DNA of 64,000 bases from Stegostoma tigrinum (Eukaryota), in contig NC_081374.1 in the NCBI RefSeq assembly GCF_030684315.1, positions 31,036,630-31,100,629 of the forward strand, in the 5' to 3' direction. The translations under genes and the position numbers were made by a program. How positions within the stretch are numbered: position 1 is the stretch's first letter; every line of letters begins with the position of its first letter. This document shows positions 3,443-59,801 of this stretch, in pieces. Under the pieces are notes generated by a model. It made no database searches. It saw nothing but the letters and a program-made list of their open reading frames with translations, and was not told the DNA's origin.

Positions 3443-4239
3443 ATATTGAGGTGCCAGTGTTGGACTGGGGTGGACAAGGCCAGAATTTACATGACACCAA
3501 GTTATTGTCCAACAGGTTTATTTGAAATCACAACTTTTTTTTCCACACTGCTCCTTCGTCAGGTGAAGTGAAAAAAAGCACGCAGGCAGAGAATGTGTAG
3601 GCAGAGAGATCAAAAGATCATACAAATGGTGTGAATGGAATTACTGAGCAGAAACTGACAGCCAAGCTGCGAACCCATGAAGACAACCATGATCTTTGAT
3701 TCATGCTGTGCTACATGTGATCCCACCATACTATTCTGTATTTGTAAAATCTTGCTTACCGTCCTGTTTTAACAGCATCACCTTGATAAGTTGTTATGAT
3801 CTCGCTACCTTAATTAGGTTCAACAGTTTTGAATTACTTGTTACCTTGATTAGATCCTTGCCATGCAACTCTTATACTTATCATGTAATTCCAGCCATTT
3901 GGTTTGTCTCCAGCATGACCTTATTTTTAATTTGTTGAAATTATCTCTCTGCCTCAATTAGTTGGGTTATAGGTCATCTCCTTCATTTACTTTTCAGCTG
4001 TTGATACTTTACTCATACAGCTTGACACTTTTGATCACCTGCAGAGACTTATTATTCAATACTCCACTCATGCCATTTGTATGACCTTTTGATCTCTCTG
4101 CCCAATGATTTCACTGCCTATAAATTCTGTGCCTGTAAACTATTCTTCACTTCATCTGATGAAGGGGCAGCACTTTGAAAGCTTTTGATTTCAAATAAAC
4201 CTGTTGGACTATAACCTGGTGTCACGTGACTTCTGACCT
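3443..4239. mobile_element. Penelope-like element family C, asymmetric inverted (palindromic) insertion
   Basis: Left ~200 bp is the reverse complement of the right end. TSD tattccaaatc(g/a)tg at 3429-3442 and 4240-4253. The left arm has a 33-nt extra tail. 3645-3720 reads as a decayed GIY-YIG C-terminus (EQKLTAKLRTHED). Confidence 0.75.
4156..4185 (+). ncRNA. Minimal hammerhead ribozyme motif (PLE family C)
   Basis: CTGATGA-aggggcagcacttt-GAAA-gctt. Core boxes present, with a palindromic AAGCTT in place of helix III; helix II is decayed. Confidence 0.55.
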
Positions 4240-4918
4240 TATTCCAAATCATGGCCACAAGCAATCTTTCCCATGTCATTGGTAATTGCTCTGCACAAAT
4301 GAAACAGGTAAAGAGGGGATATATTGGACACTGAAAATCTGGGAGAACATCGGTAGGTGAGGACATTGAGTGGGGACAAATGTTACCTTCAGTATAACAG
4401 AGTGCTGCAATGTAGACAGATGGGACTGAATTGACATCCACTTTCAACAGATGTATGTTGGATTGTTCATTAACTCTAAGTCTGTTGTTGATCATGTCTT
4501 TTCCCTGAAGCAAGTGCAACTTTTCTCTGTTTCTTTGTTTTTCTTGTTGACGAATAAAAGTGTATGTTTCCAACCATTTGAAGACTTTTCACACTGCCAC
4601 GGTCCTGTGTTAAATAATGAGAAATGTTAAGCTATACTGGGCTTTAAGGGAAAAAATTGCACTCCCTTGGACAGGGCTCTAAGATGGGAAGATGCTTAGG
4701 ACAAGTAATCTATGTTGCTTGGTGATAATGTGATGATGTGAAGGAACAATGTATTGACAAATGTGTTTGCGGTGAAGTCTCAACCATGCTACCTACTGGG
4801 TCTGCAGAAGTGTTTCCTTTTCATTCTCTTACCAATAAATGGCCAGTGACACCCACACACTGTGAGTGAATTTTGAAAAAACACAAGCAATGTGAAGGGC
4901 AACTCCTGGCTGGCTATG

Positions 4919-6026
4919 ATAATAAAATGTGAGGCTGGATGAACACAGCAGGCCAAGCAGCATCTCAGGAGCACAAAAGCTGACGTTTCGGGCCTAGACC
5001 CTTCATCAGAGAGGGGGATGGGGGGAGAGAACTGGAATAAATAGGGAGAGAGGGGGAGGCGGACCGAAGATGGAGAGTAAAGAAGATAGGTGGAGAGGGT
5101 GTAGGTGGGGAGGTAGGGAGGGGATAGGTCAGTCCAGGGAAGACGGACAGGTCAAGGAGGTGGGATGAGGTTAGTAGGTAGCTGGGGGTGCGGCTTGGGG
5201 TGGGAGGAAGGGATGGGTGAGAGGAAGAACCGGTTAGGGAGGCAGAGACAGGTTGGACTGGTTTTGGGATGCAGTGGGTGGGGGGGAAGAGCTGGGCTGG
5301 TTGTGTGGTGCAGTGGGGGGAGGGGATGAACTGGGCTGGTTTAGGGATGCAGTGGGGGAAGGGGAGATTTTGAAACTGGTGAAGTCCACATTGATACCAT
5401 ATGGCTGCAGGGTTCCCAGGCGGAATATGAGTTGCTGTTCCTGCAACCTTCGGGTGGCATCAAGGTTGCAGGAACAGCAACTCATATTCCGCCTGGGAAC
5501 CCTGCAGCCATATGGTATCAATGTGGACTTCACCAGTTTCAAAATCTCCCCTTCCCCCACTGCATCCCTAAACCAGCCCAGTTCATCCCCTCCCCCCACT
5601 GCACCACACAACCAGCCCAGCTCTTCCCCCCCACCCACTGCATCCCAAAACCAGTCCAACCTGTCTCTGCCTCCCTAACCGGTTCTTCCTCTCACCCATC
5701 CCTTCCTCCCACCCCAAGCCGCACCCCCAGCTACCTACTAACCTCATCCCACCTCCTTGACCTGTCCGTCTTCCCTGGACTGACCTATCCCCTCCCTACC
5801 TCCCCACCTACACCCTCTCCACCTATCTTCTTTACTCTCCATCTTCGGTCCGCCTCCCCCTCTCTCCCTATTTATTCCAGTTCCCTCCCCCCATCCCCCT
5901 CTCTGATGAAGGGTCTAGGCCCGAAACGTCAGCTTTTGTGCTCCTGAGATGCTGCTTGGCCTGCTGTGTTCATCCAGCCTCACATTTTATTATCTTGGAA
6001 TCTCCAGCATCTGCAGTTCCCATTAT
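4919..6026. mobile_element. Neptune-type PLE family A, near-perfect palindromic insertion (~530 bp arms)
   Basis: Arms are reverse complements around the spacer cgggtggcatc (~5451-5461), which gives mirror ORFs 5234-5659 and 5253-5678. TSD ctcctggctggctatg at 4903-4918 and 6027-6042. 35-nt tail on the right arm only. Confidence 0.93.
5903..5930 (+). ncRNA. Minimal hammerhead ribozyme motif (family A); mirror copy on - strand at 4982-5009
   Basis: CTGATGA-A-GGGT(CTAG)GCCC-GAAAC-GTC: intact core, helix II and GUC cleavage triplet. Confidence 0.75.
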
Positions 6027-6104
6027 CTCCTGGCTGGCTATGTTTGAGCTGATGCCCAGTTGAGCTTTAAAAATTGTGCTGGCTTGATTGATCAAACTAC
6101 CAGT

Positions 6105-6592
6105 TTTGAGGTTGTGGACTTGTTTGCCGAGCCAGTGTGTTTCAGTGCAGATGTTTCATAACCCTGCTGGGTAACATCATCAGTGCGCGTCCAGTGAAGC
6201 GTTGGTGTTCTGTCCTGCTTGTTATTTATCTACTTCGGTTTTCTGGGGTGGTTGGCATCACTTCTGGTTTTGTCTTTCAGTGGTTTGCATATCGGATACA
6301 GTTCTGTCTGTCTGTTGATGGAGTTCCAGATGGAATGCCAGGCCTCTAGGAATTCCCTGGCATGTTTCAGCTTGGCTTATGCTATTTCTGGCTGTGTTGT
6401 CCCAACCGAATTCGTGTCCCTCTATGTCCATGGGTCTTGAGACTAGCGAGAATTTGTCATGTCTCTTGGTAGCTAGTTGATGTTTGTGTATCTTTATTGT
6501 GGGTTTTCTTCCATTTTTGCCCATGTAATGTTTCTCACAGTCCTTGCATGGTATTTTGTATATTATGTTGGTTTTATTGGGAGTGGGCATGG
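6105..6592 (-). mobile_element. Poseidon-type PLE (family D) 3' fragment with decayed GIY-YIG endonuclease
   Basis: ORF 6258-6590 reads NIIYKIPCKDCEKHYMG..GRK..IKIH.H. Hammerhead motif CTGATGA-tgttacccagcagggttat-GAAAC-ATC on the - strand at 6150-6183. Confidence 0.8.
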
Positions 6593-8479
6593 GATCATTT
6601 ACGTTTCAATTTACACCCTTTCTGGCTGTCTGCAGTGTCTTAATAATGGTTGAGAGATCTTCTATTTCCCAAGTTACCAACGAAAACACTGCAAAGGAAC
6701 ATTGATATAAGAAATGAGCACAGAAGTAGATGCTTATGACAATTGTGACTTATTCCTATTATCACTTGCAGAGATGGAACTGAATTACACATTTCTTTTC
6801 TGGATTTAGTATTGATGCTCAGGTAGAATTCTTTGGAACAGGGCATCATACAATTTGTCTAATTATTTAGGTTATTTTCTGCACCCTTCAGTTTAAAATG
6901 TTTTGCTCTGAAAAGGGTGACCTGATAAGAGGACAACAGGGTATCTGGGTTCTTGGTGAATTATTGTATCAAAAGCATATTCCCTAAACCCGTGAGATTC
7001 ACAGATTGGGATGCAGAAAATACTGAGAAAGAGACTGAAATAAATGGGCGAAGTGTGGTCAAATCAGATACTGTGAAAGAAACTGACAGAATAAAAGATT
7101 GGATTAAGAGAAAGTGAAAAAGGAACAAAGGAAAAGTTTTGTCATCTTAAGAAGGATACTTATGATAAATAATTATAAAGTGTAAGATTCTGTCGTAAAA
7201 TTTTCTGGAATTAACATGCAAATGCAGCAACTTTATGAAACATAGCGAAATTGAGTGTGTTGCTATATTATAAAGCTAAAAGTCAGCCAATAATTTGTAG
7301 CCAAATTGAATTGATGGGGTATCTTTTTCACCTCACAAATTTTTATATTCTAAACAGAATGCATCATTATTTTTGCCCCTATATTTCCAGTAAATGCTGG
7401 CTCATTATAATGCAGTGAGGCTAAAAGCATAAAGCTAGACTGAATGAAGTAGCAAGGATGATGGAACAAGAACTGTTGAATTGTCGATGTATTTGGAGAC
7501 GTGAGTGATCATCTCTTGGATGGATTTGTCTAATCCAGGGTCCATCAGCCAGGGGCACTAATAGTCAATATTGTTCAGCTCTCTTTTCTTTTTATACTTC
7601 ATCCTATCATTCTTCTTCCAGCTGTTATTTTAAGACCAGCAGATATTAGTAACAGCTGGTCAGTCATGATAGCAACGTCATATAAAATGCAGAAAGCAAC
7701 AACAAATCTGGAAACATGGCTTGGCCAGCACCACAAAATTTGTCCTCAGTGGTTCAGGAAATGGATGTATTATTTGAATATTAACTGTCTTCTCAATGAC
7801 GCTTTCATTGCTGTGCCCAGGTTCTGAACAGGAGTCATGAACTATGCCACCCATGTATCCAATCCGTGACTCGATTGCCCAGTTGGAATAAAAGTGGCAT
7901 GAGGATGAAGGAATTGTGATTTGAGACTTGCGTTATGGCTGAAAAGCCTCTTCATTAGGCAAGGGCACCTTAGGTAAATGAGTGGTGGAGTCCATGAGCC
8001 AAGAAGTTCAGGTATAAGAAGTGCTGTCCTAAGAATAGATGTAAGTCCAAACTCACCACAGCCTAACTACCCAGCACTGCAGTTAATCTGTTTTGAAAGC
8101 AGCAAAAAGCAGTTTAGAACTGTAAAAATTAATCATATATCAGTGTTGAATAGATTAATAATTGGCCATAGGTTAGCCTATACCCTAAAAGGAAGATCAG
8201 CAACTTACCTGTATGTAAGAGGTATTTAATTGAGGTGTCCGTGCTACTGATTACCACAAATTCTGAATGTGTTTGTCCCTGAGAGTTCACCCAATTTCAT
8301 GCATGATGTCATAAACAGCAGACGAGGCTTTCTGAAATACCACAGTAAGCATCTTGAATCATTCCTAAGGACATCTGAAAAGATACTAAATCCAAAAAGC
8401 CTGTCAAAACCATCATATTGGAAGCTTAGGTATTCCTTTTTTTATCCATTAAAATGACCAAGGTAACACAAATTTCAAG

Positions 8480-9277
8480 CCCAACATTCATATGAACATG
8501 AAGTATAACATTATGTACTTTGGTGTGAAGTAGCGAGGCATAGATTAGTTTCTAGATGGGGAAATGCTTCAGAAATCTGAAGCACAAACAGTCTTAAGAG
8601 TCCTAGTTTAGGATTCTTTTCAGGTCAACATGCAAGTTCAGTTGGCAGTTAGGAGGGCAAATACAATGTTAGCATTCATTTCAAGAGGGCAAGAATACGT
8701 ATGCAAAGATATACTGCTGAGGCTGTATAAGGGCCTGGTCAGGCTGCTCTTGGAATATTGTGAGCAATTTTCGGCCTAAGGTAAGATGTGCTGTACTGGA
8801 GAGGTCTGGAGGAGGTTTACAAGGATGATCCTGGGATGCAGGGCTTGTCATATGATGAGCCGTTGCGGACTCTGGGTCTATTCTGGGAGTTTCGAAGGAT
8901 GAGGGTGAACTTGATTGAAACTTACCGAGCACTGAGAGACCTGGATAGTGTGGCTTTGAAGAAAGTATTTCCACGAGTAGCAGATACTAGCACCCATGGG
9001 TACAGCCTCTTAGTGAAGGGGTAACCCTTTTGAACTGAAATGAGAAGGAATTTCTTTAGCCAGAGAGTGGTTAATTTATGGAACTTATTGACACAGAGGC
9101 CATGTCACTGTGTGTATTTAAGAAAAAGATAGACAGGTTCTTGATTAGTAAGGGGATTAAGGGTCATGGGGAGAAGGCAGGAGAATGGAGTTGATAAATA
9201 TACCAGCCACGATTGAATGGCAGAGCAAACTTGATGGGCCAAATGGTCTAATTCTGCAGCTATATCTTATGGTCTAA
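8480..9277 (+). mobile_element. CR1 LINE 3' fragment, degenerate
   Basis: Matches the CR1 ORF2 C-terminus (LLRLYKGLVR, RRMRVNLIETYR). Ends in a CR1-type 3' tail (ggtctaattctgcagctatatcttatggtct). Confidence 0.85.
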
Positions 9278-9781
9278 CTGTCGACACACACATACACACA
9301 AATGTCTGGCTTTTGATCTTGAATCAATCCACCAAATAGTGTTGACAATGGCTCAGGGAAATTGACTTTCAGATTGCGTTGTTTCAAAATTTCCAGAAAA
9401 CAGCCTGAAAACAGGATGTCTCTTTCTACCAAAACTCCATTTTTTCCAAACTCGTTTCTGTGACTTAATGCAGCTTAGCCACAAACTCGGACTGAGGCCA
9501 TAGTTCCATGTCTCACCAGCAGGAATTTTAAATGAGCATCTTCTGGAATTGAAACATTCATCTCCCTCTTGTGATCAAATATAGAGGCAGAAAATAGATA
9601 CATACCAATGACATTATTGACTTAGGCTTACAGATTTCCTTTCTGTTCAATTGAAATCTGAATTGATGTTTCAATTTTATTAGTTGTCCTTAAAACAAAG
9701 ACACACGTGTAATTTTTTAATAATTATTACCACTGGGAACTGGTTTATTTTCAGATATCAAATCAGCAGGCATGTTATGTA

Positions 9782-10958
9782 TATAGTGTGAATCTTGATG
9801 AACACAGCAAGCCAAGTAGCATCTTAGGAGCACAAAAACTGACGTTTTGGGCCTAGACCCGTCATCAGAGAGGGGGATGGGAAGAGTGTTCTGAAATAAA
9901 TAGGGAGAGAGGGGCAGGCAGACCGAAGATGGGTAGAGGAGAAGTTAGGTGGAGAGGATACCGGTGGGGAGGTAGGGAGGGGATAGGTCAGTCCAGGGAG
10001 GACAGACAGGTCAAGAAGGTGGAATGGGTTTAGTAGGTGGGAAGTGGAGGTGCAGTTTGAGGTGGGAGGAGGGGATAGCTGAGAGGAAGAACAGGTTAGG
10101 GAGGTGAGGATGAGCTGGGCTGGTTTTGGGATGCAGTGGGGAAAGGGGGAGATTTTGAAGCTGGTGAAGTCCACATTGATACCATTGGGGTGCAGGGTTC
10201 CCAAGCAGAATATGAGTTGCTGTTCCTGCAACCTTAGGGTGGCATCATTGTGGCACTGCAGGAGGCCCATGATGGACATGTCGTCTAAGGAATGGGAGGG
10301 GGAAGTTAAAATGGTTCGCAACTGGGAGATGCAGTTGTTTGTTACGAACCGAGCAGAGGTGTTCTGCAAAGTGGTCCCCAAGCCTCCCTCCACCTTGGTT
10401 CATAATAAACAACTGCACCTCCCAGTCGCAAACCATTTTAACTCCCCCTCCTTAGACGACATGTCCATCATGGGCCTCCTGCAGTGCCACAATAATGCCA
10501 CCCAAAGGTTGAAGGAACAGCAATTCATATTCCGCTTGGGAACCCTGCAGCCCAATGGTATCAGTATGGACTTCACCAGCTTCAAAAGCTACATCCCCAA
10601 ACCAGCCCAGCTCGTCCCCAATTCCCTAACCTGTTCTTCCTCTCACCTATCCTGTCCTCCCACCTACTAACCTCATCCCACCTCCTTGACCTGTCCATCC
10701 TCCCTGGACTGACCTATTCCCCCCCCCCTACCTCCACACCTATACTCTCCTGTCCACCTATCTTCTCCTCTATCCATCTGCAGCCTGCCTCCCCCTCTCT
10801 CCCTATTTACTTCAGAACCCTCTCCCCATCCCCCTCTCTGATGAAGGCCCAAAACATCAGCTTTTGTGCTCCAAAGATGCTGCTTAGCCTGCTGTGTTCA
10901 TCCAGCTTCACACTTTGTTATCTTGGATTCTCCAGCATCTGCAGTTCCCCTTTTCTCT
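9782..10958. mobile_element. Older family A-related PLE palindromic insertion
   Basis: Diverged inverted arms meet near 10360-10395, with GIY-YIG C-terminal peptides on both strands. Tail on the right arm. Decayed hammerhead motifs near 9841-9868 (-) and 10838-10858 (+). TSD not resolved. Confidence 0.85.
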
Positions 10959-12299: not shown

Positions 12300-12525
12300 A
12301 ATTGTTGACTTGCTTGCTGAGCTGGTAAGTTTGTTTGCAAACATTTTGTTGCCACACTAGATAATATCATCAGTGCACCTCCAGTGAAGCGTCGGTGTTC
12401 TGCCCCGCTTGCTATTTATGTGTCTCTGTTTGCTGGGTTGGTTGGCATCACTTCCAGATTTGTTGCTAAGTTGTTGGTAATTTGCGTCCGGCTCTACATG
12501 TTTGTTAATGGAGTTCCGGTTTGAG
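12300..12525 (-). mobile_element. Family D (Poseidon-type) PLE 3' end
   Basis: Visibly homologous to 6110-6330 (atcatcagtgc.cctccagtgaagcg..ggtgttctg). Confidence 0.75.
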
Positions 12526-12529
12526 GTTT

Positions 12530-12652
12530 GAAGTGAAGTTCACCTCACCTGACAAAGGAGCAGTGCTCAGAAAGCTTGTGATTTCAAATATAACCTGGTG
12601 TTATGTGACTTCTAACTTTGTCCACCCCAGTCCAATATTGCCACCTCAATAT
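12530..12652 (+). mobile_element. Family C PLE 3' end including tail
   Basis: ctgacaaaggagcagtgctcagaaagcttgtgatttcaaat...gtccaccccagtccaa matches 4150-4240 and the reverse complement of 3443-3560. Confidence 0.75.
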
Positions 12653-13651
12653 TTGTGTTGAAAGGGACCTGGGTGTCTGTTTGTTAGTATCTGAGATCTA
12701 AAAAGTAAGTGCAGCAAGCAATTTGTAAAGTAAGTGGGATGTTGACCTTTATTGCCAGAGGAATTGAGTACAGGAATGAAGAAGTCCATCTTCAATTGTA
12801 TGGAATACTCGTGAAACCACACCTGTAGTATTGTAAGCTTTTCTGCTTCCCTTACCATGGAGGAAGTGCAGCAGCAGCTCACCAGGCTGATTCCTGGGGT
12901 TGTGGGACTGTACTAAGAGGTGAGATTGGGAAAATTGCACCTGTATCCTCTGAAGTTTAAAAGAATGAATGGCTATTTCATAGAAATTCTCAAAATTCTT
13001 AGACAAATAGACAGTTTAGATGCAGAAAGGTCAATTTCCCCACCTCTGACACCCAGCAACACAGATTCAATAAAAAGAACAAGCCATTTAATACTAAGCT
13101 GAGGAGTTTTTTTATCACTCAGAGGGTGGTGAATCTTTGAAATTCTCAATCTCAAATGACAATGGGTGCTTAGATATTAAGTAAGTTCAAGACAAAGAAT
13201 GATAGATTTCGAGATACTAACAACTCCAATGGATCCAGGGATAATGTGGGCACATGGCGTTGATGTAGATGATGAGCCCTGAGCTGGATTGGTTCGAGGG
13301 GTTGAATGGCCCATTCCTGCTCTTATGTTCCTTTGTCCCATGTTCTGTGCAGCCAGTCATTCCATCCTTTTATCAGCTTACAAAATTGAAAAGCCAGGAA
13401 GTTATGCAAAATCATATCAACCTTTGCTAGATCGAGAGAACATTGGGCAACTTTTGTTTTCTATATTATTAAAAATGAGAGAAAGGTTGTTAAGTCGGGG
13501 GAAGGGAAGTTTGAAGGATGATGTATAAAATAATTGCTTTGAAAGGGTTAATGTTGGAGATTGTTACACTCCACCCAATTTGATGATGTCAGAATCTTTG
13601 GCTAAAGAAGCAGTCTAGCATGAGCTCCCAATGGATACCGATGTGTCTTTG

Positions 13652-13865
13652 ATAACAAAGTGTGGAGCTGGATGAACACAGCAGGCCAAGCAGCATCTCA
13701 GGAGCACAAAAGCTGATGTTTCGGGCCTAGACCCTGCATCAGAGAGGGTCTAGGCCCGAAATATCAGCTTTTGTGCTCCTGAGATGCTGCTTGGCCTGCT
13801 GTATTCATCCAGCTCCACACTCTGTTACTGTGGATTCTCCAGCATCTGCAGTTCCCATTGTCACA
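13652..13865. mobile_element. Miniature palindromic family A PLE insertion (non-coding)
   Basis: Inverted arms of ~85 bp centred on the hammerhead region; tail on the right. TSD gatgtgtctttg at 13640-13651 and 13866-13877. Confidence 0.88.
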
Positions 13866-14391: not shown

Positions 14392-14742
14392 GGCGGCACA
14401 GCGGCTCAGTGGGTTAGCACTGCTGCCTCACAGCGCCAGGGACCCAGGTTCGATTCCACCCTCGGGCGACTGTCTGTGTGGAGTTTGCACATTCTCCTTG
14501 TGTCTGCCTGGGTTTCCTCTGGGTGCTCAGGTTTCTTCTCACAGTCCAAAGATGTGCAGGCTAGGTGGATTAGCCATGCTACATTGCCCATTATGTTCAG
14601 GGGTGTGTAGGTTAGGTGCGTTGGCCATGGTGGGGTTGCAGAGATGGGGTAGGGAGCTGGATCTGGGTGGGATGCTCTTCCGAAGTTTGGTGTGTTGTTG
14701 GGCCGAATGGCCTGTTTACACACTGTAGGGATTCTAATTCTA
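14392..14742 (+). mobile_element. HE1-type V-SINE
   Basis: tRNA head ggcggcacagcggctcagtgggttagc...ggttcgattcc, V-domain gtgtggagtttgcacattctcc, and CR1-derived tail gggccgaatggcctgttt...ctgtagggattcta. Confidence 0.88.
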
Positions 14743-14779: not shown

Positions 14780-15005
14780 TGAAGAAATAGGAACAGATGT
14801 GGTCCATTCAGCCCGTGAAGCCTGTTCTGCAATTCATTAAGACCATGGCTGATGTGATAACCCTCACATTCACTTTCCTGCCTTTTGCCGTAACTCTTGA
14901 TTCCCCTACTGATCATGAATATGTGCAAGGATTCTGTCCCCATGGCCATTCATAGCAAAGACTCACAACTTTGTAAGAGAAAAAAATTCCTCCTCATCTC
15001 AGTTT
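14780..15005 (-). mobile_element. CR1 LINE 3' end fragment
   Basis: Reverse-complement CR1 tail (ccattcagccc...aaattcctcctcatctcagttt). Confidence 0.7.
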
Positions 15006-15007
15006 GC

Positions 15008-15282
15008 CCCTCCTCCCGGATCAAGCTCCGGGTTTCCCCCCCCCCAACTTCCGGACCCAGCTCCGGGATTCTCTCCCCCTCCTCCCGAACCCAGCTCCGG
15101 GTTTTCCCCCTCTCCCTGATCCAGCTCCGGGTTTTCCTCTCCTCCCGGACCCTGTCCGGTGTCTCCCCTACCCCGCTCCTCCGGGACCGTGCTCCGTGTT
15201 TTCCGCTCCTCCCGGACCCAGCTCTGTGTTTTTACTCCTCCCGGATCCAGCTCCGTGTTTTCCGCTCCTCCCGGACCCTGTC
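15008..15282. repeat. CpG-rich minisatellite, about 9 units of ~29-35 bp
   Basis: Recurrent unit ctcctcccggacccagctccg(g/t)gttttcc. Confidence 0.85.
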
Positions 15283-15548: not shown

Positions 15549-15706
15549 TAATCCTGCGGGACCTTCGTATCTCCGATTTGAATCATCGCACCGCTGGTGG
15601 CCAGGCCTAGGCTCCAAACATTGGAACGTTTCCCCTTAAACCTCACTCACCTCCTTCATTACAATCTCTCTACTCTGCTTTGATCAACCAGGTTTGGTTC
15701 ACAGAG

Positions 15707-15867
15707 ATAATGGGAACTGCAGATGCTGGAGAATCCAAGATAACAAAGTGCGAAGCTGGATGAACATAGCAGGCCAAGCAGCATTTCAGGAGCACTTTTG
15801 TGAGATAGGAGCACTCCTGAGATGCTGCTTGGCCTGCTGTGTTCATCCAGCTTCACACTTTGTTATC
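15707..15867. mobile_element. Miniature palindromic family A PLE insertion in UBE2T intron 1
   Basis: Inverted arms, tail on the left, hammerhead core absent. TSD ttggt(t/g)cacagag at 15694-15706 and 15868-15880. Confidence 0.85.
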
Positions 15868-15977
15868 TTGGTGCACAGAGCCTGAGTGAGAGACCTTTAC
15901 AGTGATGTCTGCTGATGTGGTTTGTGGCTGTAACCCTCCCATTTGTGCTTTTGTTTGTGCTGCAGGTCAACTGCCAG

Positions 15978-16089: not shown

Positions 16090-16395
16090 GTACGTTTCTT
16101 TTTGCACACTGGAGAGTCATGCTCAGCCTCCCCTTACCACAAGTATAATGTTAGCTAATCTTTAAAGCTGAAGCTCTGACTGTACAGTGGAATTTTGACA
16201 TTTATTTCCTTAATTTACTTTGTTCCCGATTAGTAACTGCAGACAGAATATTGTGGAGGCAACAACGGTCTGTCCACCCAGCTGGACAGTGGGCAAAAGG
16301 CCTGTGTCATCCTTTCTAGGGAAATGATTTTTTTGTAGCGCTCAACAAACCAACAGCCACCTTCACTCACGGTCAAGAGCCGCTGATTGTTCAGA

Positions 16396-16606
16396 GACAG
16401 TAGGATCTGCAGATGCTGGAGAATCTGAGATAACAAGGCATAGAGCTGGATGAACACAGCAGGCCAAGCAGCATCAGAGGAGCAGGAATGCTGATGTTTC
16501 AGGCCTAGACCCTCTGATGAAGGGTCTAGGCCAAATACGTCAGCTTTCCTGCTCCTGAGATGCTGCTTGGCCTGCTGTGTTCATCCAGCTCTACACCTTG
16601 TTACGG
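16396..16606. mobile_element. Miniature palindromic family A-related PLE insertion in UBE2T intron 2
   Basis: Arms fold around ctgatga, tail on the left. TSD gctga(t/c)tgttcaga at 16382-16395 and 16607-16620. Confidence 0.85.
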
Positions 16607-20937: not shown

Positions 20938-21163
20938 AAAGCAAAGTTGCTGGAAAAGCTCAGCAGGTCTGGCAGCATCTGTGGAGGAGAAAACAGAGTT
21001 AACGTTTCGGGTCCAGTGACCCTTCCTCAGAACTCACCGCACCTGAAACATTAACTCTTTAACTAAATGTTTTCTCCTCCACAGATGCTACCAGACCTGC
21101 TGAGCTTTTCCAGCAACTTTGCTTTTGTTCCTGATTTACAGCATCCACAGTTCTTTTGGTATT
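20938..21163. mobile_element. Miniature palindromic PLE insertion, family B
   Basis: Inverted arms aaagcaaagttgctggaaaagctcagc... and ...gctgagcttttccagcaactttgcttt, with a ~37-nt tail on the right. TSD tactccctaa(t/g)atct at 20923-20937 and 21164-21178. Confidence 0.85.
20996..21035 (-). ncRNA. Minimal type I hammerhead ribozyme motif (family B)
   Basis: GAGTT-CTGAGGA-A-GGGTC(ACTG)GACCC-GAAAC-GTT-AACTC: perfect 5-bp helix I and 5-bp helix II. Confidence 0.78.
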
Positions 21164-22117: not shown

Positions 22118-22445
22118 TGAGGTTGACTTGCTCGCCGAGCCGGCTTGTTTTCGTTTAGGCTTTTCATTACCATGCTAGGTAACATCAGTGAGGCCTCCGA
22201 TGAAACAATGTTGTTCTACTCCACTTGGAATTTATACTGTCCAGTCTGTTTATGGTGGGTTGTGTCATTTCTGGTTTTGTTCTGTATGCGTTTGTATATG
22301 GGGGCCAGTTCTACACGTTTGTTGATTTGCATTATGGTTGGAGAACCATGCCTCTCGGAATTCCCATGCATGCCTGTAGTTGGCTTGGGCTACTACGGTT
22401 ACATTTCCTAAGTTGAACTGATGCCCTTTGTTTGAGTGTACTGAT
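22118..22445 (-). mobile_element. Family D (Poseidon-type) PLE 3' fragment
   Basis: Homologous to 6110-6430 (gacttgctcgccgagc...ggtaacatcagtg...ggaattccc). Confidence 0.7.
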
Positions 22446-40900: not shown

Positions 40901-40914
40901 AGAGAGTGGTCGTG

Positions 40915-43388: not shown

Positions 43389-44403
43389 ATTGGCAAGATC
43401 TGCTGCTTTACGTTTTTAATAGTCATTTTTTAAAAAACATGCTTATTTAAATTAGCTGTGTATTGTTTTGAAATTAATCACTTTTGTGCCAAACATTATC
43501 TTTCTAAAATTTCTTCACCCGAGTGCAAGAACATTTAGAATGTGCTCTTCCCATGCAAAAATGTTGGACACGACTGTATTACATAAACTTGCTAATTATA
43601 TCTTGTAATTAGCAATGTGGTATGTTGCCTTTATGTTTAATTGCTTTGGTGGACTTGAGTTTGAGAAGTTGTGGATATGTAGGTACCTAAATTGGTTTCT
43701 TTTAAAAGAGTCCATTGAAAGGATAATGGAACTTCTTTTCTTTAATTCGGCAAATCTTAGAGCCCCTATATTTCCAGGAGATTATCAGGCATCGTTGCTC
43801 GAACTCAGTTCAGGAAATAAAAATCTGGCATTTTGCAACTGGGCTTATGACTTTTCTGCTTGAAGAATGTTTTGCAGGCTTGGAATTTCAGTTGTGGGTG
43901 CCTGATCTAAAAAGGAGCTGCTCAGCTGATGTCTCCTGTTTCTGAAGCATACTTGAGGTGAATCCAGTCTGAAACATGATTGTCCTCCTGAAAATTGACT
44001 GGAACACTTCATAATACTATGTTTCCTGAGTAAGGTATGTCTGCAAATATCCCAGAGACAGCTGATTATGTTTTGTGAGCCTGTCTACTGCTGCCAGAAT
44101 ATTCACATGACATCTTTATTCTTCTTACATTCAAGAACGAAGACTGTTTTGAAAAAGTGTGTATTTTCCAAATTGATTGCCTGCAGAGTAAAATATCATT
44201 TTCCCATTGCCAATTTATGTTTGTCTATACCTTGAGTTATTTAGAGAGGTAATCTATATTTTTATGTCGTAAACTAAGTGTTACCCAGTTTTAAAGCGGA
44301 TGAGCTTATTAATGAAACTAGTTGAGTGTTTTGTTTTAAGTAGAATGTAAGTGGAGCAATTGTTTGACCAAGTTTGGAACCAGGCAAAACCATTAAATAT
44401 AAG

Positions 44404-45343
44404 AGATAATGGGAACTGCAGATGCTGGAGAATTCCAAGATAATAAAATGTGAGGCTGGATGAACACAGCAGGCCAAGCAGCATCTCAGGAGCACAAAAG
44501 CTGACGTTTCGGGCCTAGACCCTTCATCAGAGAGGGGGATGGGGAGAGGGAGCTGGAATAAATAGGGAGAGAGGGGGAGGCGGACCGAAGATGGAGAGTA
44601 AAGAAGATAGGTGGAGAGAGTATAGGTGGGGAGGTAGGGAGGGGACAGGTCAGTCCAGGGAAGACGGACAGGTCAAGGAGGTGGGATGAGGTTAGTAGGT
44701 AGCTGGGGGTGCAGCTTGGTGTGGGAGGAAGCGATGGGTGAGAGGAAGAACCGGTTAGGGAGGCAGAGACAGGTTGGACTGGTTTTGGGATGCAGTGGGT
44801 TGGGGGGAAGAGCTGGGCTGGTTTTGTGGTGCAGTGGGGGGAGGGGACGAACTAGGCTGGTTTAGGGATGCAGTAGGGGAAGGGGAGATTTCGAAATCTC
44901 CCCTTCCCCTACTGCATCCCTAAACCAGCCTAGTTCGTCCCCTCCCCCCACTGCACCACACAACCTGCCCAGCTCTTCCCCCCCACCCACTGCATCCCAA
45001 AACCAGTCCAACCTGTCTCTGCCTCTCTAACCGGTTCTTCCTCTCACCCATCCCTTCCTCCCACACCAAGCTGCACCCCCAGCTACCTACTAACCTCATC
45101 CCACCTCCTTGACCTGTCCGTCTTCCCTGGACTGACCTATCCCATCCCTACCTCCCCACCTATACTCTCTCCACCTATCTTCTTTACTCTCCATCTTCGG
45201 TCCGCCTCCCCCTCTCTCCCTATTTATTCCAGCTCCCTCTCCCCATCCCCCTCTCTGATGAAGGGTCTAGGTCCGAAACGTCAGCTTTTGTGCTCCTGAG
45301 ATGCTGCTTGGCCTGCTGTGTTCATCCAGCCTCACATTTTATT
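44404..45343. mobile_element. Family A PLE palindrome with spacer-less centre
   Basis: Centre gagatttc|gaaatctc at 44892/44893. TSD accattaaatataag at 44389-44403 and 45344-45358. Tail on the left. Hammerhead motifs at 44503-44530 (-) and 45255-45282 (+). Confidence 0.93.
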
Positions 45344-46374
45344 ACCATTAAATATAAGTTTTGGCCATGGAATAGCAGGATTAAAGAAAAACAGTGCACT
45401 CTCCCTTCTCAGGCATAGAAAAGAATGTCAATGTGATCTTTTTCAATGGTTGTCAATCAATCCCTTTTACCTAGAAATTGAACAATTAAACACGGGTGAA
45501 TGTCTCCTTACGGTTGTGAATTGTTTTATAATATGTATAAAAGTGTAAAATCTGAAATAAAAAAGATATTTTTATGCTTGTCAAAAGCAAATTATTGCAA
45601 ATGCTAGAGACCTCAAATTAAAATAGAAAGTATTGGAACGCTCATCAGGTATGGAAGCATCTGTGGAGAGAATCAGAACTAATATTTCAGCCCATATGGC
45701 TTATTTGGATGACCTCCTCATCTCCATTTACTAGCTTCTCTTTTCACAACTTTTCTTTCATAACCCAATTTTTCTTTCCACTCTATGTCCTTTCTCTTCA
45801 TTGTTCACTTCTCACTCCAATCCATCAGAAGCAAACTGTAATTTAAATAAAAGGAGATTTTTATTTGGACCGAAATGTTTGTTTTAGAAATGTTTTTGAA
45901 TGCCTCTAAGGCCGAGAAAGAGGGGACATAGGTTCTCAAATCTGACACTGGGAAACTTAATGATAGAGGTCATTGGAAGGAGGAATATCCTATATCTGCA
46001 GAGGAGATCGCCACTTGCCCTCCATCAACAACAGCTTCTAAGCTTGGTTCATGTCCTCCTCCATTCCTCATCCAATCCAAGAGAGGCCCTCAGTAGTATT
46101 CCATGACAAAATATTCCCATTTGCCCAGTTGATTCCCAAGACATAGAATGGCACATCCATTTTATATGAAATCCTGAGAGAACTCCCAGAAGGAATATTG
46201 TTAGAATTTTGGGTATTTGTTGAAAAGGATCATGGAAAATTAACCAGTTGCTGCAGAGATCTTCTTAATGGTTATGACGAAGGTTCATGATCTGTAAATT
46301 TGTGTTATTATTTGGAAACTTGTGTTCCACTGTTGACAGAATCACTTGGATATTTTTGAGTTCAACTTTCTTTT

Positions 46375-49240: not shown

Positions 49241-49299
49241 TTTTCTTCCCTGGCTTACCAAACATACCCTTCCTTCAGCATAACTCTCTTTTTTCCTCT

Positions 49300-49535
49300 T
49301 TTTCTGGGCACCCTCTCCACCTAACTACTCACTGCTTCCCCCCTCCTGCCAAACACTCATGTTAATCATAAATATCATCTTTTCCTAGCTGCTATCAGTT
49401 CTGAAGAAGGGTCACTGGACTCACAATGTTAACTCTGTTTTCTCTCCACAGAAGCTGCCAGACCTGTTGATTTTCTCCAGCAATTCTGTTTTTGTTTGTT
49501 TCAGATCTCCATCATCAAAAGTTATTTGTTTTATT
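49300..49535 (+). mobile_element. Family B PLE 3' end with decayed hammerhead
   Basis: cagtt-CTGAAGA-agggtcactggactc-acaatgtt-aactc at 49396-49435, followed by the family B terminus. Confidence 0.7.
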
Positions 49536-49907: not shown

Positions 49908-50221
49908 AATTGAATCCCGATACTGTGGAGATATGCCCTTTGGCCCAACAAGCCCATACTGATTCTCAGAGCATCCTCACCCCACCCAGACCCATCCCCC
50001 TTTAACCCGCCTAATCCACACATCCCTAAACACTATGGACAATGTAGCATGGCCAATCCACCTAGCCTGCACATCTTTGGAATGTGGGAGGAAACCGGAG
50101 CACCCAAAAGAAACCCACACAGACATGTGGAGAATGTGCAAACTCCACACAGTCATTCGAGGGTGGAATCGAACCTGGGTCCCTGGTGCTGTGAGGCAGC
50201 AGTGCTAACCGCTGAGCTACC
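49908..50221 (-). mobile_element. HE1-type V-SINE
   Basis: Reverse complement of the 14392 SINE. Confidence 0.88.
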
Positions 50222-53200: not shown

Positions 53201-55024
53201 TGTTTCATGCTAGCAGAAGGGCAGTTTAGGATGTGTAACCCAGGCTTTCAGAGCCAGAAAAGAGTTTTAAAACTGTTAAAAACTAACTTAGTGGTTTAAA
53301 TAAGCAAAACATTTCTTAATGCTCAGTCTGCCCAAAGGCCTATTTCTCTGTTTCTTAGGCAGAAGCAGTAATGAAGAGAATCACACTTGGTGAATATGGC
53401 GAATATTGCTGAAAGGAAATAATTGCAAACCACTTTTGCTATTGCTGTTATGATGTAAACTGTGGGATTTATTGGGACAATTTTTAATGTGTTTGCTGTA
53501 ATCTTGGATTTCTGGTTTTGAATTAGAAACTGGTGGGCTTTTGAGTGTGTATAAAGTTAATTATTAACTTGAATGTATTTCTGTAACTATGATGATTTCT
53601 TCTAAAGGATATTTTTGAAGTCTCACTGTAGAATGAATAGATTTTGTACACAAATTAACTTTTCTACATTTCAGGCTGTTTGTGACCCAACATGGTAAAT
53701 AACGGAGTCTTAAAGATTTGTTGGAAAGTTCTGGAATCCGTTTCTTGTTTATATTTAAGAGAAACATCCTTGGCTGACAGAGAGAACTTTTAGCTTCACT
53801 TTTGACTTTAGGTAATCTTAGTCCTGTGAAGACCTTAGGTTAGGATGGCTGAGAAGAAAATGATAGACTAGTGAATTAAAGTACCTTGGAATTAAATACT
53901 AGAGTTAGTCCCGGACCAGAATGTAGGGAGAAAAAAATCACCAGGAAGGAGCCATCTGCAGTTCCAGTTTAAAAGTCGAAGTCACAAGTGAATTAAACCT
54001 ACCAAGGTTTTAAATGCAGGAAATTTGGTCTGGGTGTTACATAAGGGTGCTTTGGAAACCGTACCAGAAGGGATGTTTTGGCTGCTATACAAAAACTGCT
54101 TTGTTTCTTTCTCATTTAGAAAGCAGAGTTCTGGTATTAGTGGATTCTACTTTCACGGTGTGTTTAAAATCTTTGAACTTGTGTTATAAGTAGTTAGTTT
54201 GGGTTATTCTACCTGATCTATGTTCTTTTTGTAATAAACCTCCAGTTTATTGTGAAAGCAAAATGTGCAGCATACATGCTTATGGCTCAGTGAGAGACTG
54301 CATTGTTAAAACAAAAACAAGTAAAAATATGATCTATAAAGCCTTGTTCATGACTGGAATCTGACTTTTCTAGCAATGACATCTGCTGGGGATCATAGCA
54401 CTGTTTATGTTAAACTTTTTCCAAAGTTATAAAGGAAGTGATAATTTAGTGAAAAAAGATCAGTTGTTAGTTAAGTTAATAGCAATTAATAGAAACAAAA
54501 TGTTGTCTAAGGAATATTTGAATGCATACTAATATGCTAAAACAAAACTGTACGGAAATTCGAAGAATTTCTTGATGGCCATGGGGCTGGAGGATTGCCA
54601 AACACCTGTGACAAAAGCCAGATGGGTGGACCAGTTAAATCTCAATTATTCATAAAGAGATAATATAAGCAAAGTGATAAGGCTTCTATTTATAGACAAG
54701 AATAAATAAGTAATGAAATATTATTCCAACTGGCCTAGAAATGTTAAAAGGCAACACATATACACACAAACAGAAAGACATAAGTCACCAGCCTTAGGAT
54801 ATAAATGGGCCAACATTACCACTAATTCCCCAAGGGTGTTGCAAAGATACACTAAAAAAATTACACTGGATTGTGAATGTAGTTTTCATTTCGTCTTATT
54901 TGTTTGAAAATGTTAAATATTCATGCAAGATTTAAATACTGGGCATAAATCTAAAGTAGAATATTCATGTTATAACTATTCTTATTAACTATATAACTAC
55001 TACTTATTATTAAAACAATAGCAT

Positions 55025-55117
55025 CTCTGATGAAGGGTCTAGGCCCGAAAAGTCAGCTTTTGTGCTCCTGAGATGCTGCTTGGCCTGCTATGTTCATTCA
55101 GCTTCACACTTTGTTAT
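55025..55117 (+). mobile_element. Solo ~93 bp family A PLE terminus that starts at the hammerhead motif
   Basis: CTGATGA...GAAAAGTC at 55027-55054. Possible TSD atagcat at 55018-55024 and 55118-55124. Confidence 0.75.
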
Positions 55118-57722
55118 ATAGCATTGAATATTTACTTTTCTTTAATATTCACTATTTTTATAAATGAATTGATTGTATTTAAGTATTATGTTCTCCACTT
55201 CCCTATTAATTTTCAAATGATAATATGTAATATTTATTTCTATAATGTAATTTAAAATTGATCACAATGTTAAGTATTCATAAACAGTAATAATAATATT
55301 ACAGTCTCACAGTTATATCCTAACAATCCCTCCCTATAATTTTTTTAAGATTCTAAATGCTGATAATGGCAATTATTTTTAAAAAAGTGTTTGTTTCTGC
55401 AATATACCAACAGATATGTTTAACCCTGATGTAAATTTGCTCGTTTGAAAATTATTGGGCAGGTGTAGAAGTCATTGCTAGACAATCTGAAGTATAAACC
55501 TGGCAAATAAAAATGCTTGCAGAAATTGTCAAAAGATCAATATGAGGAAGAAACCTGCTGCCCTTGACCTCATCGTCACCCATCTACCTGTGGCAGACAC
55601 ATCTGACCATAATGGTGTTGGTAGGAGTGATTACTTCATGGCCTTTTGTTAGGAAGGGGAGGTCGAATCCCCCCCACCCACTGATAATCAAAATTAAAAT
55701 ATAAGCTTTCAATCCACTATGGTCATAATAGAGGTCCCCTTCTAATAATTAAACCCAAAACACCCAAAGAAGCTCACCTCACCTCAACTAATCAGTTAAA
55801 AAAGAGTGTTTAAATGAAAGAAAATCTCTGATATTCACTTTATTAGCAACAAGTAATAATTTATTTATTTAACCCTAAAAGTAAACAAATTAACAGAATT
55901 ACTAACAAATCGAACAATTCCCCCTTAACTACTAACTCTTCCCAAACAGAACAAAATTCAAATTGTATGCAGTTCCAGTAAATACAAGTCACACTTATAA
56001 AAACCCAAGTAATAATGAAAAAAACCTAGCCTGTCAAAAGTGCAGCCAGGTTAAATTTTCTGGAATGTTCTTTGCTGGTCCTGTCAGGAATGCTTTCTCT
56101 GTAATTTTTTCTATCAGGAATCTTAGCTAGGCATGCCATGGTACCTTTATGAATCGGTCATGCTTTCTCAGAGAGCTTAGTGATTTGTGTGACAGCCGGC
56201 TATTTACTCTTCAGATGGCAGTTCCCTTTCATTCTGATTTTCAAAAACTGCCTTCATATATACCCCTAATGACTTGTCAATTTTCTAATAATAGGATTGG
56301 TCTGAGGTTGTCAAGACCATCAGATTCAAATTCAATTGGCTTCCAATCTGTAAGCGCTTTGTTTAAATTAATTGGGTGATCTTTAAGCTAGCTGCCAAAA
56401 CATCAAAACAAGCCTAAAGTTTCCCATCACACAGAGAAGTGAAACATGTTTCAATTTCAGAATTTCTGTGCCTCTTCAGCTGCTTACAAACACATTTTTA
56501 TTTAAATCTCCAAGCTAAGAAACACACATCACCTGTTAAAGGGACTACACATACCTCCCTCCAATCATTTTTATAGACAAATTCTAACTTCCTGCCTTCA
56601 AATTCACAAGTACTCTACACATTTTTGTAACAATTTGTGCAGATGAACTTCCTTCTTAATGCTGAAGATATCTTCTATCACCAATGTGTTAAAATGAAAA
56701 CAATAAGAATAGACCCAGCATCTGAAAACTGGCATCCATATGGCACTCTGGGCAGAGTTGCATTTGAAACAAACTTTAAACCTTATGCTTGCCATACTCC
56801 CTTGCTCCAACATTACCACCAAGCCAATGCAACAACATTATTTCAATGCTGAGTTTAGAATGTCATGCCAGTAGGAATATCAGCGATGTTTAACAACGAG
56901 GTGGTTGATCTGGTGAAGCCACGTTAGCTGACCGATATACATACAATACTGTAGACTGCTTAGACACTGCCAAGCAATCCCACAACGTATGGTTCAGGCC
57001 AAAACTCTGCAGTTTTGCTACATCTAGTCTTGAATGATGTTAAACAATTAACCAATGAACCAGACTAAATTAGTTCTCAAATCTTCAGTTATAGGGAATT
57101 CCAATACATGAGTGCAAAAGACAATGTTAAAATGTCTGCATTCATTTTCAGTCAGACTTGGCCAGTAAAAAAAAATCTTCACTGCCTGCTGAAGCTCCCA
57201 TTACAAGAATGTGGTTTTATACTATTGTTGTAAATTCATATCTTGAGCTCTATGTGATTTCAGTCCATGATGAATTAAAAGTTTTCACTTTGGTGAACAA
57301 GGATGCTTTACAAAGCATGACACTGGTGATGATGAGAAGCAGAAGGAATGCGTGAAGATGATTCATCCACATCCAGAGGGTCTGGGTTTTATATTCCTCA
57401 CTGTTTGTGAATGAAGAGCTGACGTGAACTAAACAGTCATGTTAATAGAATGACTGAGAGAGATTGAAAAGAGGTTAGTATATCTTTCTGGCTCCATGTT
57501 GATATATCTGACATTGCCATGTAGGGTTTTTGATGTGTTATGATTTAGTGGCAGTATGCTTGGATTATAATAATCAAAAGTAGTACTGGCATTAGACTTT
57601 TGATCCTGTCATCATAGCAGAATTGTAAAGGGTGATTTATCTGTGTTCTTACAGTAAATCATCATCTCAATAACAATCATAACAAAGGATCATATCATCA
57701 TGCTGAAATCACACGGAGTACT

Positions 57723-59801
57723 CAAGATAATAAAATGTGAGGCTGGATGAACGCGGCAGGCCCAGCAGCATCTCAGGAGCACAAAAGCTGATGTTTCGGG
57801 CCTGGGCCCTTCATCAGAGAGGGGGATGGGGTGAGGGTTCTGGAATAAATAGGGAGAGAGGGGGAGGCGGACCGAAGATGAAGAGTAAAGAAGATAGGTG
57901 GAGAGGAGAGTATAGGTGCGGAGGTAGGGAGGGGATAGGTCAGTCCAGGGAAGACGGACAGGTCAAGGAGGTGGGGAGAGGTTAGTAGGTAGGAGATGGA
58001 GGTGCGGCTTGGGGTGGGAGGAAGGGATGGGTGAGAGGATGAACAGGTTAGGGAGGCAGAGACAGGTTGGACTGGTTTTGGGATGCAGTGGGTAGAGGGG
58101 AAGAGCTGGGCTGGTTGTGTGGTGCAGTGGGGGGAGGTGACGAACTGGGCTGGTTTTGGGATGCGGTGGGAGAAGGGGAGATTTTGAAGCTGGTGAAGTC
58201 CACATTGATACCATTGGGCTGCAGGGTTCCCAAGTGGAATATGAGTTGTTGTTCTTGCAACCTTCGGGTGGCATCATTGTAGCACTGCAGGAGGCCCATG
58301 ATGGACATGTCATCTAAAGAATGTGAGGGGGAGTGGAAATGGTTTGCGACTGGGAGGTGCAGTTGTTTATTGCGAACTGAGCGGAGGTGTTCTGCAAAGC
58401 GGTCCCCAAGCCTCCGCTTGGTTTCCCCAATGCACAGGAAGCCACACCGGGTACAATGGATGCAGTATACCACATTGGCAGATGTGCAGGTGAACCTCTG
58501 CTTAATATGGAAAGTCATCTTGGGGCCTGGGATAGGGGTGAGGGAGGAGGTGTGGGGGCAAGTGTAGCATTTCCTGCGGTTGCAGGGGAAGGTGCCGGGT
58601 GTGGTGGGGTTGGAGGGCAGTGTGGAGCGAACAAGGGAGTCACGGAGAGAGTGGTCTCTCCAGAAAGCAGACAAGGGTGGGGATGGAAAAATGTCTTGGG
58701 TGGTGGGGTCGGATTGTAGATGGCGGAAGTGTCGGAGGATGATGTGTTGTATCCGGAGGTTGGTGGTGGGGTGGTGTGTGAGAACGAGGGGGATCCTCTT
58801 TGGGCGGTTGTGGCGGGGGCGGGGTGTGAGGGATGTGTTGCAGGAAATGCGGGAGACGCGGTCAAGGGCGTTTTCAACCACTGTGGGGGGAAAGTTGCAG
58901 TCCTTGAAGAACTTGGACATCTGGGATGTGCGGGAGTGGAATGCCTCTTCGTGGGAGCAGATGCGGCGGAGGCGGAAGAATTGGGAAAAGGGGATGGAAT
59001 TTTTGCAGGAGGGTGGGTGGGAGGAGGCGTATTCTATGTAGCTGTGGGAGTCAGTGGGCTTAAAATGGACATCAGTTACAAGCTGGTTGCCTGAGATGGA
59101 GACTGAGAGGTCCAGGAAGGTGAGGGATGTGCTGGAGATGGCCCAGGTGAACTGAAGATTGGGGTGGAAGGTGTTGGTGAAGTGGATGAACTGTTCGAGC
59201 TCCTCTGGGGAGCAAGAGGCGGCGCCGATACAGTCATCAATGTAACGGAGGAAGAGGTGGGGTTTGGGGCCTGTGTAGGTGCGGAAGAGGGACTGTTCCA
59301 CGTAACCTACAAAGATGCAGGCATAGCTGGGGCCCATGCGGGTGCCCATGGCCACCCCCTTTGCCTGTAGGAAGTGGGAGGAATCGAAAGAGAAGTTGTT
59401 GAGGGTGAGGACGATTTCTGCTCAGCGGATGAGGGTGTCGGTGGAGGGGGACTGGTCGGGCCTGCGGTACAGGAAGAAGCAGAGGGCCTTGAGGCCATCT
59501 GCATGCGGAATACAGGTGTATAGGGACTGGACGTCCATGGTGAAAATGAGGTGTTGGGGGCCAGGGAATTGGAAGTCCTGGAGGAGGTGGAGGGCGTGGT
59601 TGGTGTCACGGACGTAGGTGGGGAGTTTTTGGACCAAAGGGGAGAAAATGGAGTCCAGATAGGTGGAGATGAGTTCGGTGGGGCAGGAACAGGCTGAGAC
59701 AATGGGTCGACCAGGGCAGGCAGGTTTGTGGATTTTGGGAAGGAGATAGAAATGGGCCGTGCGGGGTTGGGGAATAATAAGGTTGGAGGCAGTGGGTATG
59801 T
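57723..59801 (-). mobile_element. Neptune-type PLE family A, 5'-truncated copy with RT, Cys linker and GIY-YIG
   Basis: One reading frame (59422-59850 plus 58048-59355) broken by a single TGA at 59422-59424. Motifs: LPKIHK, GRPIVS, DVQSLYT, AMGTRMGPSYA, RYIDD, CNRRKCYTC, and VYCI..CIGET (YIG mutated to CIG). TSD ggagtact at 57715-57722 and 59802-59809. Hammerhead at 57790-57817. Confidence 0.95.

Follow-up and report, generated by a model that had tools for sequence, protein, structure and literature searches.

Hammerhead ribozymes of Penelope-like elements in the shark Stegostoma tigrinum probably form the first bases of the element mRNA

What purpose does a self-cleaving ribozyme serve in a retroelement, when most of its genomic copies are decaying? 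The question is raised by a stretch of 64,000 nucleotides from the shark Stegostoma tigrinum (NCBI RefSeq assembly GCF_030684315.1, contig NC_081374.1, positions 31,036,630 to 31,100,629 of the forward strand; 'the window' below, numbered from its first base). It holds four families of Penelope-like elements (PLEs), named A to D, each with a minimal hammerhead motif. The role of PLE ribozymes is unsettled (PMC8557442), and cleavage is dispensable in vitro (PMC11167929). It is likely that the minimal type I hammerheads in the pseudo-long terminal repeats (pLTRs) are the first 30–50 bases of the element mRNA, where they would act as a slow cap-clipping switch and probably not as the maker of the transposition template. 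Motifs of this kind are already published (PMC4209133), and the reading of the start site is the part added here. In literature searches that covered neither subscription journals nor supplements, no paper turned up that connects the ribozyme with the start site or infers the start from short copies.

The main evidence lies in where the copies begin. Positions are counted from the first base of the hammerhead core (C3), taken as 0; the predicted cut of family A falls between +27 and +28. The genome-wide sample consists of 129 evenly spaced 10-kb stretches (1.29 Mb; loci outside the window are labelled L###), and 31 further sampling positions lay beyond the ends of short contigs and are not part of it. 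The sample yielded 216 A-type arms anchored on the tail; here and in the other 5'-end counts both arms of one fold-back are counted separately. Sixty-eight of these arms extend beyond −40, 10 start at −40 to −11 and five at −8 to −5. At −4 to −1 there are 48 starts, where 2.2 or 4.7 would be expected from the upstream or downstream rates. Further down, 26 arms start at 0 to +9, 17 at +10 to +19 and five at +20 to +26. The cut site itself shows no pile-up, with two starts at +27 to +29 against 4.1 expected; 16 arms start at +30 to +36 and 19 at +37 to +47. In an independent BLAST count, 46 of 128 starts lie at −10 to +9 and one at −25 to −11. The 3' ends fall at +89 to +94 and at +124 to +130, two end points that define the tail.

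The upstream edge recurs beyond family A. Within the 10 nt before the core, 43/110 copies of A end, compared with 3/67 in the next 10 nt (p 6e-8). For A', an older relative of A, the figures are 32/48 and 1/16 (p 2e-5). Family B gives 32/39 and 3/7 (p 0.046), an analysis that rests on 39 copies; a search for extra B copies without upstream bias found none. In family C they are 22/28 and 2/6 (p 0.048), and in family D there is no pile-up at the core (3/33, next 10 nt 4/30), while four of 33 arms start at −16 to −18; the counts for C and D each include 20 of 40 top matches chosen by sequence from the core onward. Among 108 A arms examined at their junctions, 65 are long, 27 adjoin an inverted arm, 15 adjoin unrelated DNA and one jumps on the same strand into the element interior. 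Because the short arms are flanked in these ways, they are taken as true ends.

A TATA-like box stands at a fixed distance. Among the 141 long copies of A and A' that have a TATA-like word within −45 to −20, it lies at −34/−35 in 132. Family B has TATAAA at −33/−34 in four of six matches (70 copies, mostly short), family C at −37 to −39 in 17 of 18 (56 copies) and family D at −45 to −48 in 22 of 23 (65 copies). Adding the customary 30 nt from box to start gives −4 in A, A' and B, −7 in C and −17 in D. This coincides with the upstream edge of the pile-up in A and C, and the edge in B is at −4 to −7; the short arms of D at −16 to −18 lie 30 nt from D's own box and away from its core. In A', B and C, words resembling the usual initiator consensus occur at the predicted starts. 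A splice acceptor ahead of the core was considered and rejected: an AG is present in B only, not in A or C, and the short copies share no common upstream exon.

The junctions at the predicted start have features of their own. An extra G is expected there from copying of the cap, and one is found in 5/7 junctions of A, 2/3 of A', 3/3 of C and 0/2 of B. A cap-derived G in B was first seen with a G-containing query; it was not borne out in unselected B copies. At L101 (minus strand, 7941), L099 (minus strand, 2710), L038 and L135 the sequence jumps from the predicted start to the element interior on the same strand, as would be expected of a reverse transcriptase (RT) that switched templates on reaching the RNA's 5' end.

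The same ends bear on an older idea, that the hammerheads cut a multimeric precursor RNA to make the template for transposition, and perhaps let circles form, the short copies being ordinary 5' truncations. Such processing has been proposed for PLEs (PMC4209133), and tandem arrays do exist: in two of the 129 stretches (L193 and L169) they are built of units of pLTR plus start of the open reading frame (ORF), 301 and ∼440 bp long, and each array has three hammerheads, all three L193 units share one private base change, and a third stretch has a direct hammerhead pair at 481 bp. However, linear cut templates should begin at +28, where starts are fewer than expected, and ordinary truncation gives no sharp edge at −4. 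A circular route would leave no scar at +28, and the long copies and the arrays are compatible with it. Taken as a whole, precursor cutting is improbable as the account of these copies.

It is equally improbable that the pile-up records an RT stall or template switch at the ribozyme fold, a bound protein or a pyrimidine run, with the true start elsewhere and the boxes incidental. The starts do trail downstream through +19, pyrimidine-rich DNA precedes the core in all the Neptune-type families, and 27 of 43 short A arms are joined to their inverted arm, often via short complementary stretches within the hammerhead. Yet RT arrives from the 3' side, so that a stall is expected before the fold and not just after it, and the edge at −4 is sharp on its upstream side. 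In C and D, moreover, the edge (−7 and −17) follows the box at 30 nt and not the core.

Whether the motif is still a ribozyme is a separate matter. A, A', B, C1 and D1 agree in every core base of their majority sequences, with CUGANGA and GAAA present and a U-H at the cut site, H being C in A and D and U in B and C. Helix II has four pairs in A and A', five in B and C1 and six in D1, with a G-C first pair and an extra base before the helix; the C of this pair has become T in many old copies, as CpG decay. Helix III is reduced to a palindrome, ACGU in A, B and D and AGCU in C. The earlier note on this DNA, made from the sequence alone, had recognised this minimal type I architecture, and it agrees with the published description in its extra base, first pair and palindrome (PMC4209133). 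Helix I, which measures about 3–5 bp in the minimal type, has four pairs in B and C, three in D and only two in A and A'. In the A lineage its second pair occurs as U-A, U-G and C-G, and the third position never pairs. In family D the third pair is G-C in 8/16 chosen rows and U-A in 5/16, and in family C two-sided changes affect a single pair in helix I and another in helix II, each in 3/12 rows. Across the C and D rows ∼89–90% of paired cells can pair, compared with 23–61% when the partners are slid. The motif is thus, on sequence comparison, real and constrained in the master lineages.

Conservation of the core and covariation, both named in the earlier note, hold between families and subfamilies. 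An excess of core conservation within families (0.92–0.98 against 0.79–0.95) was not counted as evidence, because only copies with a nearly intact core had been harvested and CpG sites lie at the remaining positions. Rows C2, D2 and D3, mixed or too few, were left out of that comparison, and in a MAFFT alignment across the families the cores are not in register.

The earlier note also doubted that family A is active, and the predicted folds justify the doubt. As monomer or dimer, the A RNA is predicted to form a hairpin that pairs the core with the cut site; B is predicted to form helices I and II, and the B copy in the window gives the expected dimer. None of the predicted A or B folds beats shuffled sequences. 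Cleavage activity is most doubtful, on these models, in family A. This opens a further possibility: that the A motif no longer cuts and is kept as a promoter or protein-binding sequence, a hairpin with which the RNA begins, and that ribozymes remain in B, C and D alone. Helix I is limited to two pairs in all A subfamilies, and A is the youngest and most abundant family, with 299 of 477 matches. Against this, family A has kept every core base and the palindrome of helix III, the second helix I pair has been kept through three base combinations, and Drosophila Penelope likewise has a helix I of 2 bp (PMC4209133). A dead motif in A is a possibility, though rather unlikely, and it is compatible with a start site at the motif.

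Several observations weigh against a start at the ribozyme or loosen its support. The 30-nt spacing from TATA box to start and the initiator consensus are general values. Some copies called short are long copies with indels or with older upstream sequence (read by eye, at least two rows in A, one in A' and one to three in B). The cluster in D consists of four arms from three insertions, one of them an internal deletion. The 16 starts at +30 to +36 slightly exceed background, and a few templates that were cut and then trimmed could be concealed among them. The junction G is suggestive at most of a copied cap, and several of the G's can derive from the inverted arm. The controls on covariation are mixed: the share of paired cells is reached by 4/500 and 5/500 shuffles, and the number of pairs with two-sided changes by 500/500 and 420/500, in hand-picked, related rows. 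Finally, the Penelope promoter of D. virilis has no TATA box, and its start lies 46 nt ahead of an intron (Schostak et al. 2008, PMC2377424); the layout is thus not universal.

The sequence of events would then be as follows. A TATA/initiator promoter within the pLTR would start the RNA at −4 in A, A' and B, at −7 in C and at −17 in D. Since a start at −4 or −7 leaves a Neptune-type helix I only four to seven bases, the 2-bp helix I of family A would follow from the position of the promoter. The element RT would begin inside the RNA at +92 or +126, as in the anole element described below. Where it began at the site near the 5' end, it would run off the cap after 95–130 nt; two such cDNAs made at two nicks and joined head to head would give the short fold-backs with target duplications, and long copies would come from RT starting at the 3' pLTR. 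The ribozyme would be mostly off, the core of A being predicted to pair with the cut site, and would cut only as a dimer or with an element protein. The inserted copies are likely made from uncut RNA.

If the RNA does start at the ribozyme, cleavage would remove only the cap and ∼32 nt, which points to control of translation or of RNA fate and away from precursor cutting; the outcome might be altered translation, either lowered or rerouted without a cap, altered stability, or free ends for circles. Such a start would also explain the short arms of helix I and the very many short palindromic repeats in genomes of this kind, repeats that can be mistaken for miniature inverted-repeat transposable elements (MITEs) or microRNA hairpins. 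A broader proposal, with about an even chance of being right, extends this to vertebrate Neptune elements in general: the promoter fires at the ribozyme, the ribozyme is a self-decapping switch operated by dimerisation or protein, internal priming close to the cap gives strong-stop-like cDNAs of 95–130 nt whose short fold-back insertions number in the tens of thousands, and the genome is a fossil map of start sites in which cut RNA is not the linear template.

Two short signals near the ribozyme may be added. The ATG within the A core opens a frame of 13 codons that ends before the tail (window 5906–5947, plus strand, and all A copies), and B lacks it; an RNA starting at −4 would have this as its first AUG and would lose it on cleavage. 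Family C has AATAAA just downstream of the ribozyme (window 4194–4199, plus strand), absent from A and B, which is possibly a poly(A) signal within the repeated region.

The earlier note assigned the four families to the PLEs, and this holds: RT and/or GIY-YIG remains and pLTR or fold-back structure are found in them. Elsewhere in the genome, family A has reading frames of up to 868 codons, with RT and, C-terminally, a GIY-YIG nuclease in one ORF, a feature of the EN+ PLEs. Its hammerhead-bearing pLTR stands directly before the ORF in three of 20 loci (L093, L098 and L099; the 20 were chosen by the front part of the ORF), and the first in-frame ATG is at +166/+167, ∼165 nt downstream of the hammerhead. 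Family B has GIY-YIG and RT remains at 39338–40919 of the window and at L075, upstream of the hammerhead motif, and its nuclease is 54–58% identical to that of A. Family C retains RT, linker and the start of the nuclease at L058, 25% identical to A (E 1e-11). Family D has a GIY-YIG domain without the cysteine linker, 31% identical to A over 81 residues, and a reading frame that continues through the ribozyme; its RT is observed only in database relatives. The nearest named relatives of the D protein are from a bamboo shark, with 55–61% identity (database proteins P0001 and P0002). One of these bears the annotation of a MAP3K7 isoform, a sign that Poseidon sequence was absorbed into a gene model.

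PLE clades are defined in part through the linker between RT and nuclease (PMC8557442), and Nematis shares the cysteine linker with Neptune. The CX2-5CxxC linker is present in A and C and deleted in the single B copy read; B is placed by its 54–58% identity to A. By linker and identity, A and C are assigned as Neptune-type, B as related to A and D as probably Poseidon-type. The claim that each family has its own ribozyme is right in that the motif is present in every family; it was not separately acquired but inherited, because A and B share the downstream tail and the proteins of A, B and C are related.

The insertions, too, are built like PLEs, for which a pLTR from a partial tandem, an inverted 5'-truncated copy and a 30–40 bp tail at one end are described (PMC8557442). 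All three are found in A (L098, L093, L099 and the fold-backs). For B, C and D no copy with the 5' pLTR attached to the ORF was recovered. Most insertions are head-to-head fold-backs with the tail on one arm, and target duplications measure 10–16 bp in six of nine cases and 6–7 bp in three, a structure known for PLEs (PMC8557442, PMC3846280). A single master MITE was considered as their origin and ruled out: the fold-back centres and flanks vary from copy to copy, and the copies have their own target duplications.

Several published systems come close. Cervera and de la Pena (2014, PMC4209133) described minimal hammerheads of metazoan PLEs, the Xena, Poseidon and Neptune elements, at thousands per genome and weakly active as dimers. 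Those of fishes, the coelacanth and Xenopus share with the shark motifs the core, the extra base, the G-C first pair and the palindromic helix III, and also the location in pLTRs, the many solo copies and the opposite-strand pairs a few hundred bases apart. The family A helix I of 2 bp differs from the usual 4–5 bp of that set. The parts covered of PMC4209133 include no cartilaginous fish and no link of the motif to a start site. A literature search aimed at sharks found no paper with the start-site reading either; shark motifs or RNA ends may be listed in the supplements to PMC4209133 and PMC11167929.

In the green anole Poseidon element PAc (Frangieh et al. 2024, PMC11167929), synthesis by RT begins internally, at two sites, and both strands are extended; uncut RNA is the main substrate, and the ribozyme cuts only with protein. 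As in the shark families, the hammerhead lies at the junction of pLTR and ORF and two RT start sites define the tail, whereas the PAc ORF starts inside stem II and the first in-frame ATG of family A lies well downstream. The parts covered of PMC11167929 give no mapped start site. Drosophila virilis Penelope likewise has a pLTR promoter, carries its hammerhead close to the RNA's 5' end and has a helix I of 2 bp (PMC2377424, PMC4209133), but there a 46-nt first exon and an intron precede the ribozyme, whereas the shark families have a TATA-like box and give no hint that their copies share an upstream exon. For a rotifer pLTR a putative TATA box plus initiator is reported (PMC3846280), and cleavage-dependent translation for viral hammerheads (PMC13725137).

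A further relation is to the non-LTR retrozymes (PMC7229834), arrays of which are reported in one chondrichthyan (bioRxiv 10.64898/2026.07.22.740005). The arrays at L193 and L169 are retrozyme-like in being hammerhead-bearing repeats derived from a PLE pLTR, that of family A. At L193 (G000:C22:10000001-10010000, minus strand) the cores are at 4323, 4624 and 4925 of the reverse complement, and at L169 (G000:C13:10000001-10010000) at 7452, 7892 and 8340. Their units consist of pLTR end, hammerhead, tail and ORF start, with an inverted copy in front of them, and offer a natural context in which dimers could fold. The window copies are single or fold-back and have the minimal motif, whereas retrozymes are tandem and have the canonical one; tandem units of retrozyme type, with hammerhead and no ORF, are absent from the window and present at the two array loci.

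Within the window itself the motifs lie where the earlier note had placed them: those of A at 5903, 28933, 45255 and 55027 on the plus strand and at 5009, 27567, 44530 and 57817 on the minus strand (first core base), that of B at 21030 (−), that of C at 4156 (+) and that of D at 6183 (−). A strict descriptor (core, helix II of at least 4 bp, palindromic helix III and helix I of at least 2 bp) finds seven of them in the 64 kb, of which six belong to family A and one to family B; 200/200 simulated sequences with the window's dinucleotide frequencies contain none. The A copies at 55027 and 57817, the C copy at 4156 and the D copy at 6150–6183 are correctly located, but are decayed, the last two failing the descriptor. 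At 20996–21035, where a helix I of 5 bp had been described for B, four pairs hold, since the family's own upstream sequence gives 4 bp; the fifth comes from the fold-back junction. When up to 10 mismatches in 32 nt are allowed, 20 copies match a family anchor, and three more decayed copies, one of C at 3562 (−), one of A with helix II deleted at 10838 (+) and one of D at 12373 (−), bring the total to about 23, which bears out the 'more than a dozen' intact or decayed motifs first counted. Their interpretation as minimal hammerhead motifs of PLEs is supported. A check with Infernal covariance models, which the earlier note had proposed, is uninformative to the extent that Rfam does not detect the motifs: no hammerhead family is among its 43 window matches at E ≤10. 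Its microRNA matches at 44800–44985 and 5401–5511 are fold-back centres, score below the gathering thresholds and were discarded.

One family A insertion is a fold-back of two 5'-truncated copies head to head (4918–6029) with a 35-nt tail on the right arm (5995–6029) and a 16-bp target duplication (4903–4918 and 6027–6042). On its plus strand a TATA-like box, TATTTAT, lies at 5869–5875, 34 nt before the core, and the predicted transcription start, placed by the pile-up of 5' ends at −4 to −1, is at 5899, with the 5' strand of helix I at 5899–5902. The intact hammerhead spans 5901–5932, with the core from 5903, a 2-bp helix I and a predicted cut at 5930/5931; the mirror arm has another at 4980–5011 (−). 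In a second fold-back (27440–29025) both arms include the GIY-YIG end; its hammerheads, at 27567 (−) and 28933 (+), are intact, and its target duplication measures 15 bp. A third (44402–45353) has intact hammerheads at 44530 (−) and 45255 (+) and a duplication of 10 bp. A 5'-truncated Neptune-type element of family A (57722–59830, −) comprises RT end, cysteine linker, GIY-YIG and 3' pLTR, its hammerhead at 57817 decayed in helix III. An older A fold-back (9781–10958) has decayed hammerheads at 9868 (−) and 10838 (+). Among the short fold-backs, the arms start at the hammerhead at 13650–13862 (12-bp target duplication) and in the A-type copy at 16389–16603, and downstream of it at 15702–15871. 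A single short copy (55024–55120, +) starts 3 nt before its core at 55027 and is decayed in helix III.

The other families are represented by fewer copies. Family B has a short fold-back (20938–21160) with an intact hammerhead on the minus strand (core 21005–21030) and a 10-bp target duplication, a 5'-truncated element (39338–40919, −) with RT end, GIY-YIG, 3' untranslated region, TATAAA at 39463–39468 and a decayed hammerhead at 39435, and an older copy (49397–49495, +) with a decayed hammerhead at 49401. Family C consists of a fold-back (3443–4240) with decayed hammerheads at 3562 (−) and 4156 (+), TATAAA at 4119–4124 and an 11-bp target duplication, and of a short copy (12539–12652, +) that starts ∼10 nt before its core at 12549. 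Family D is present as a Poseidon-type 3' end with GIY-YIG (6106–6605, −; decayed hammerhead, core 6154–6183) and as two fragments, at 12302–12521 (−; decayed hammerhead at 12373) and 22117–22480 (−; decayed hammerhead near 22190). We infer that these genomic copies are dead-end products, most of whose motifs are decaying.

Other repeats share the window. Gene fragments for a LINE-type (non-LTR) RT lie at 26–1356 (−), 8538–9098 (+) and 36543–37028 (−), with a match to Pfam RVT_1 at 577–1356 (E 6e-25). A degenerate, C-rich tandem repeat with a unit of ∼30–35 bp occupies 15002–15282. Two dispersed repeats complete the set, one of ∼330 bp in three copies (14397–14734, 49909–50220 and 62269–62597) and one of ∼520 bp in two (24264–24784 and 29595–30099).

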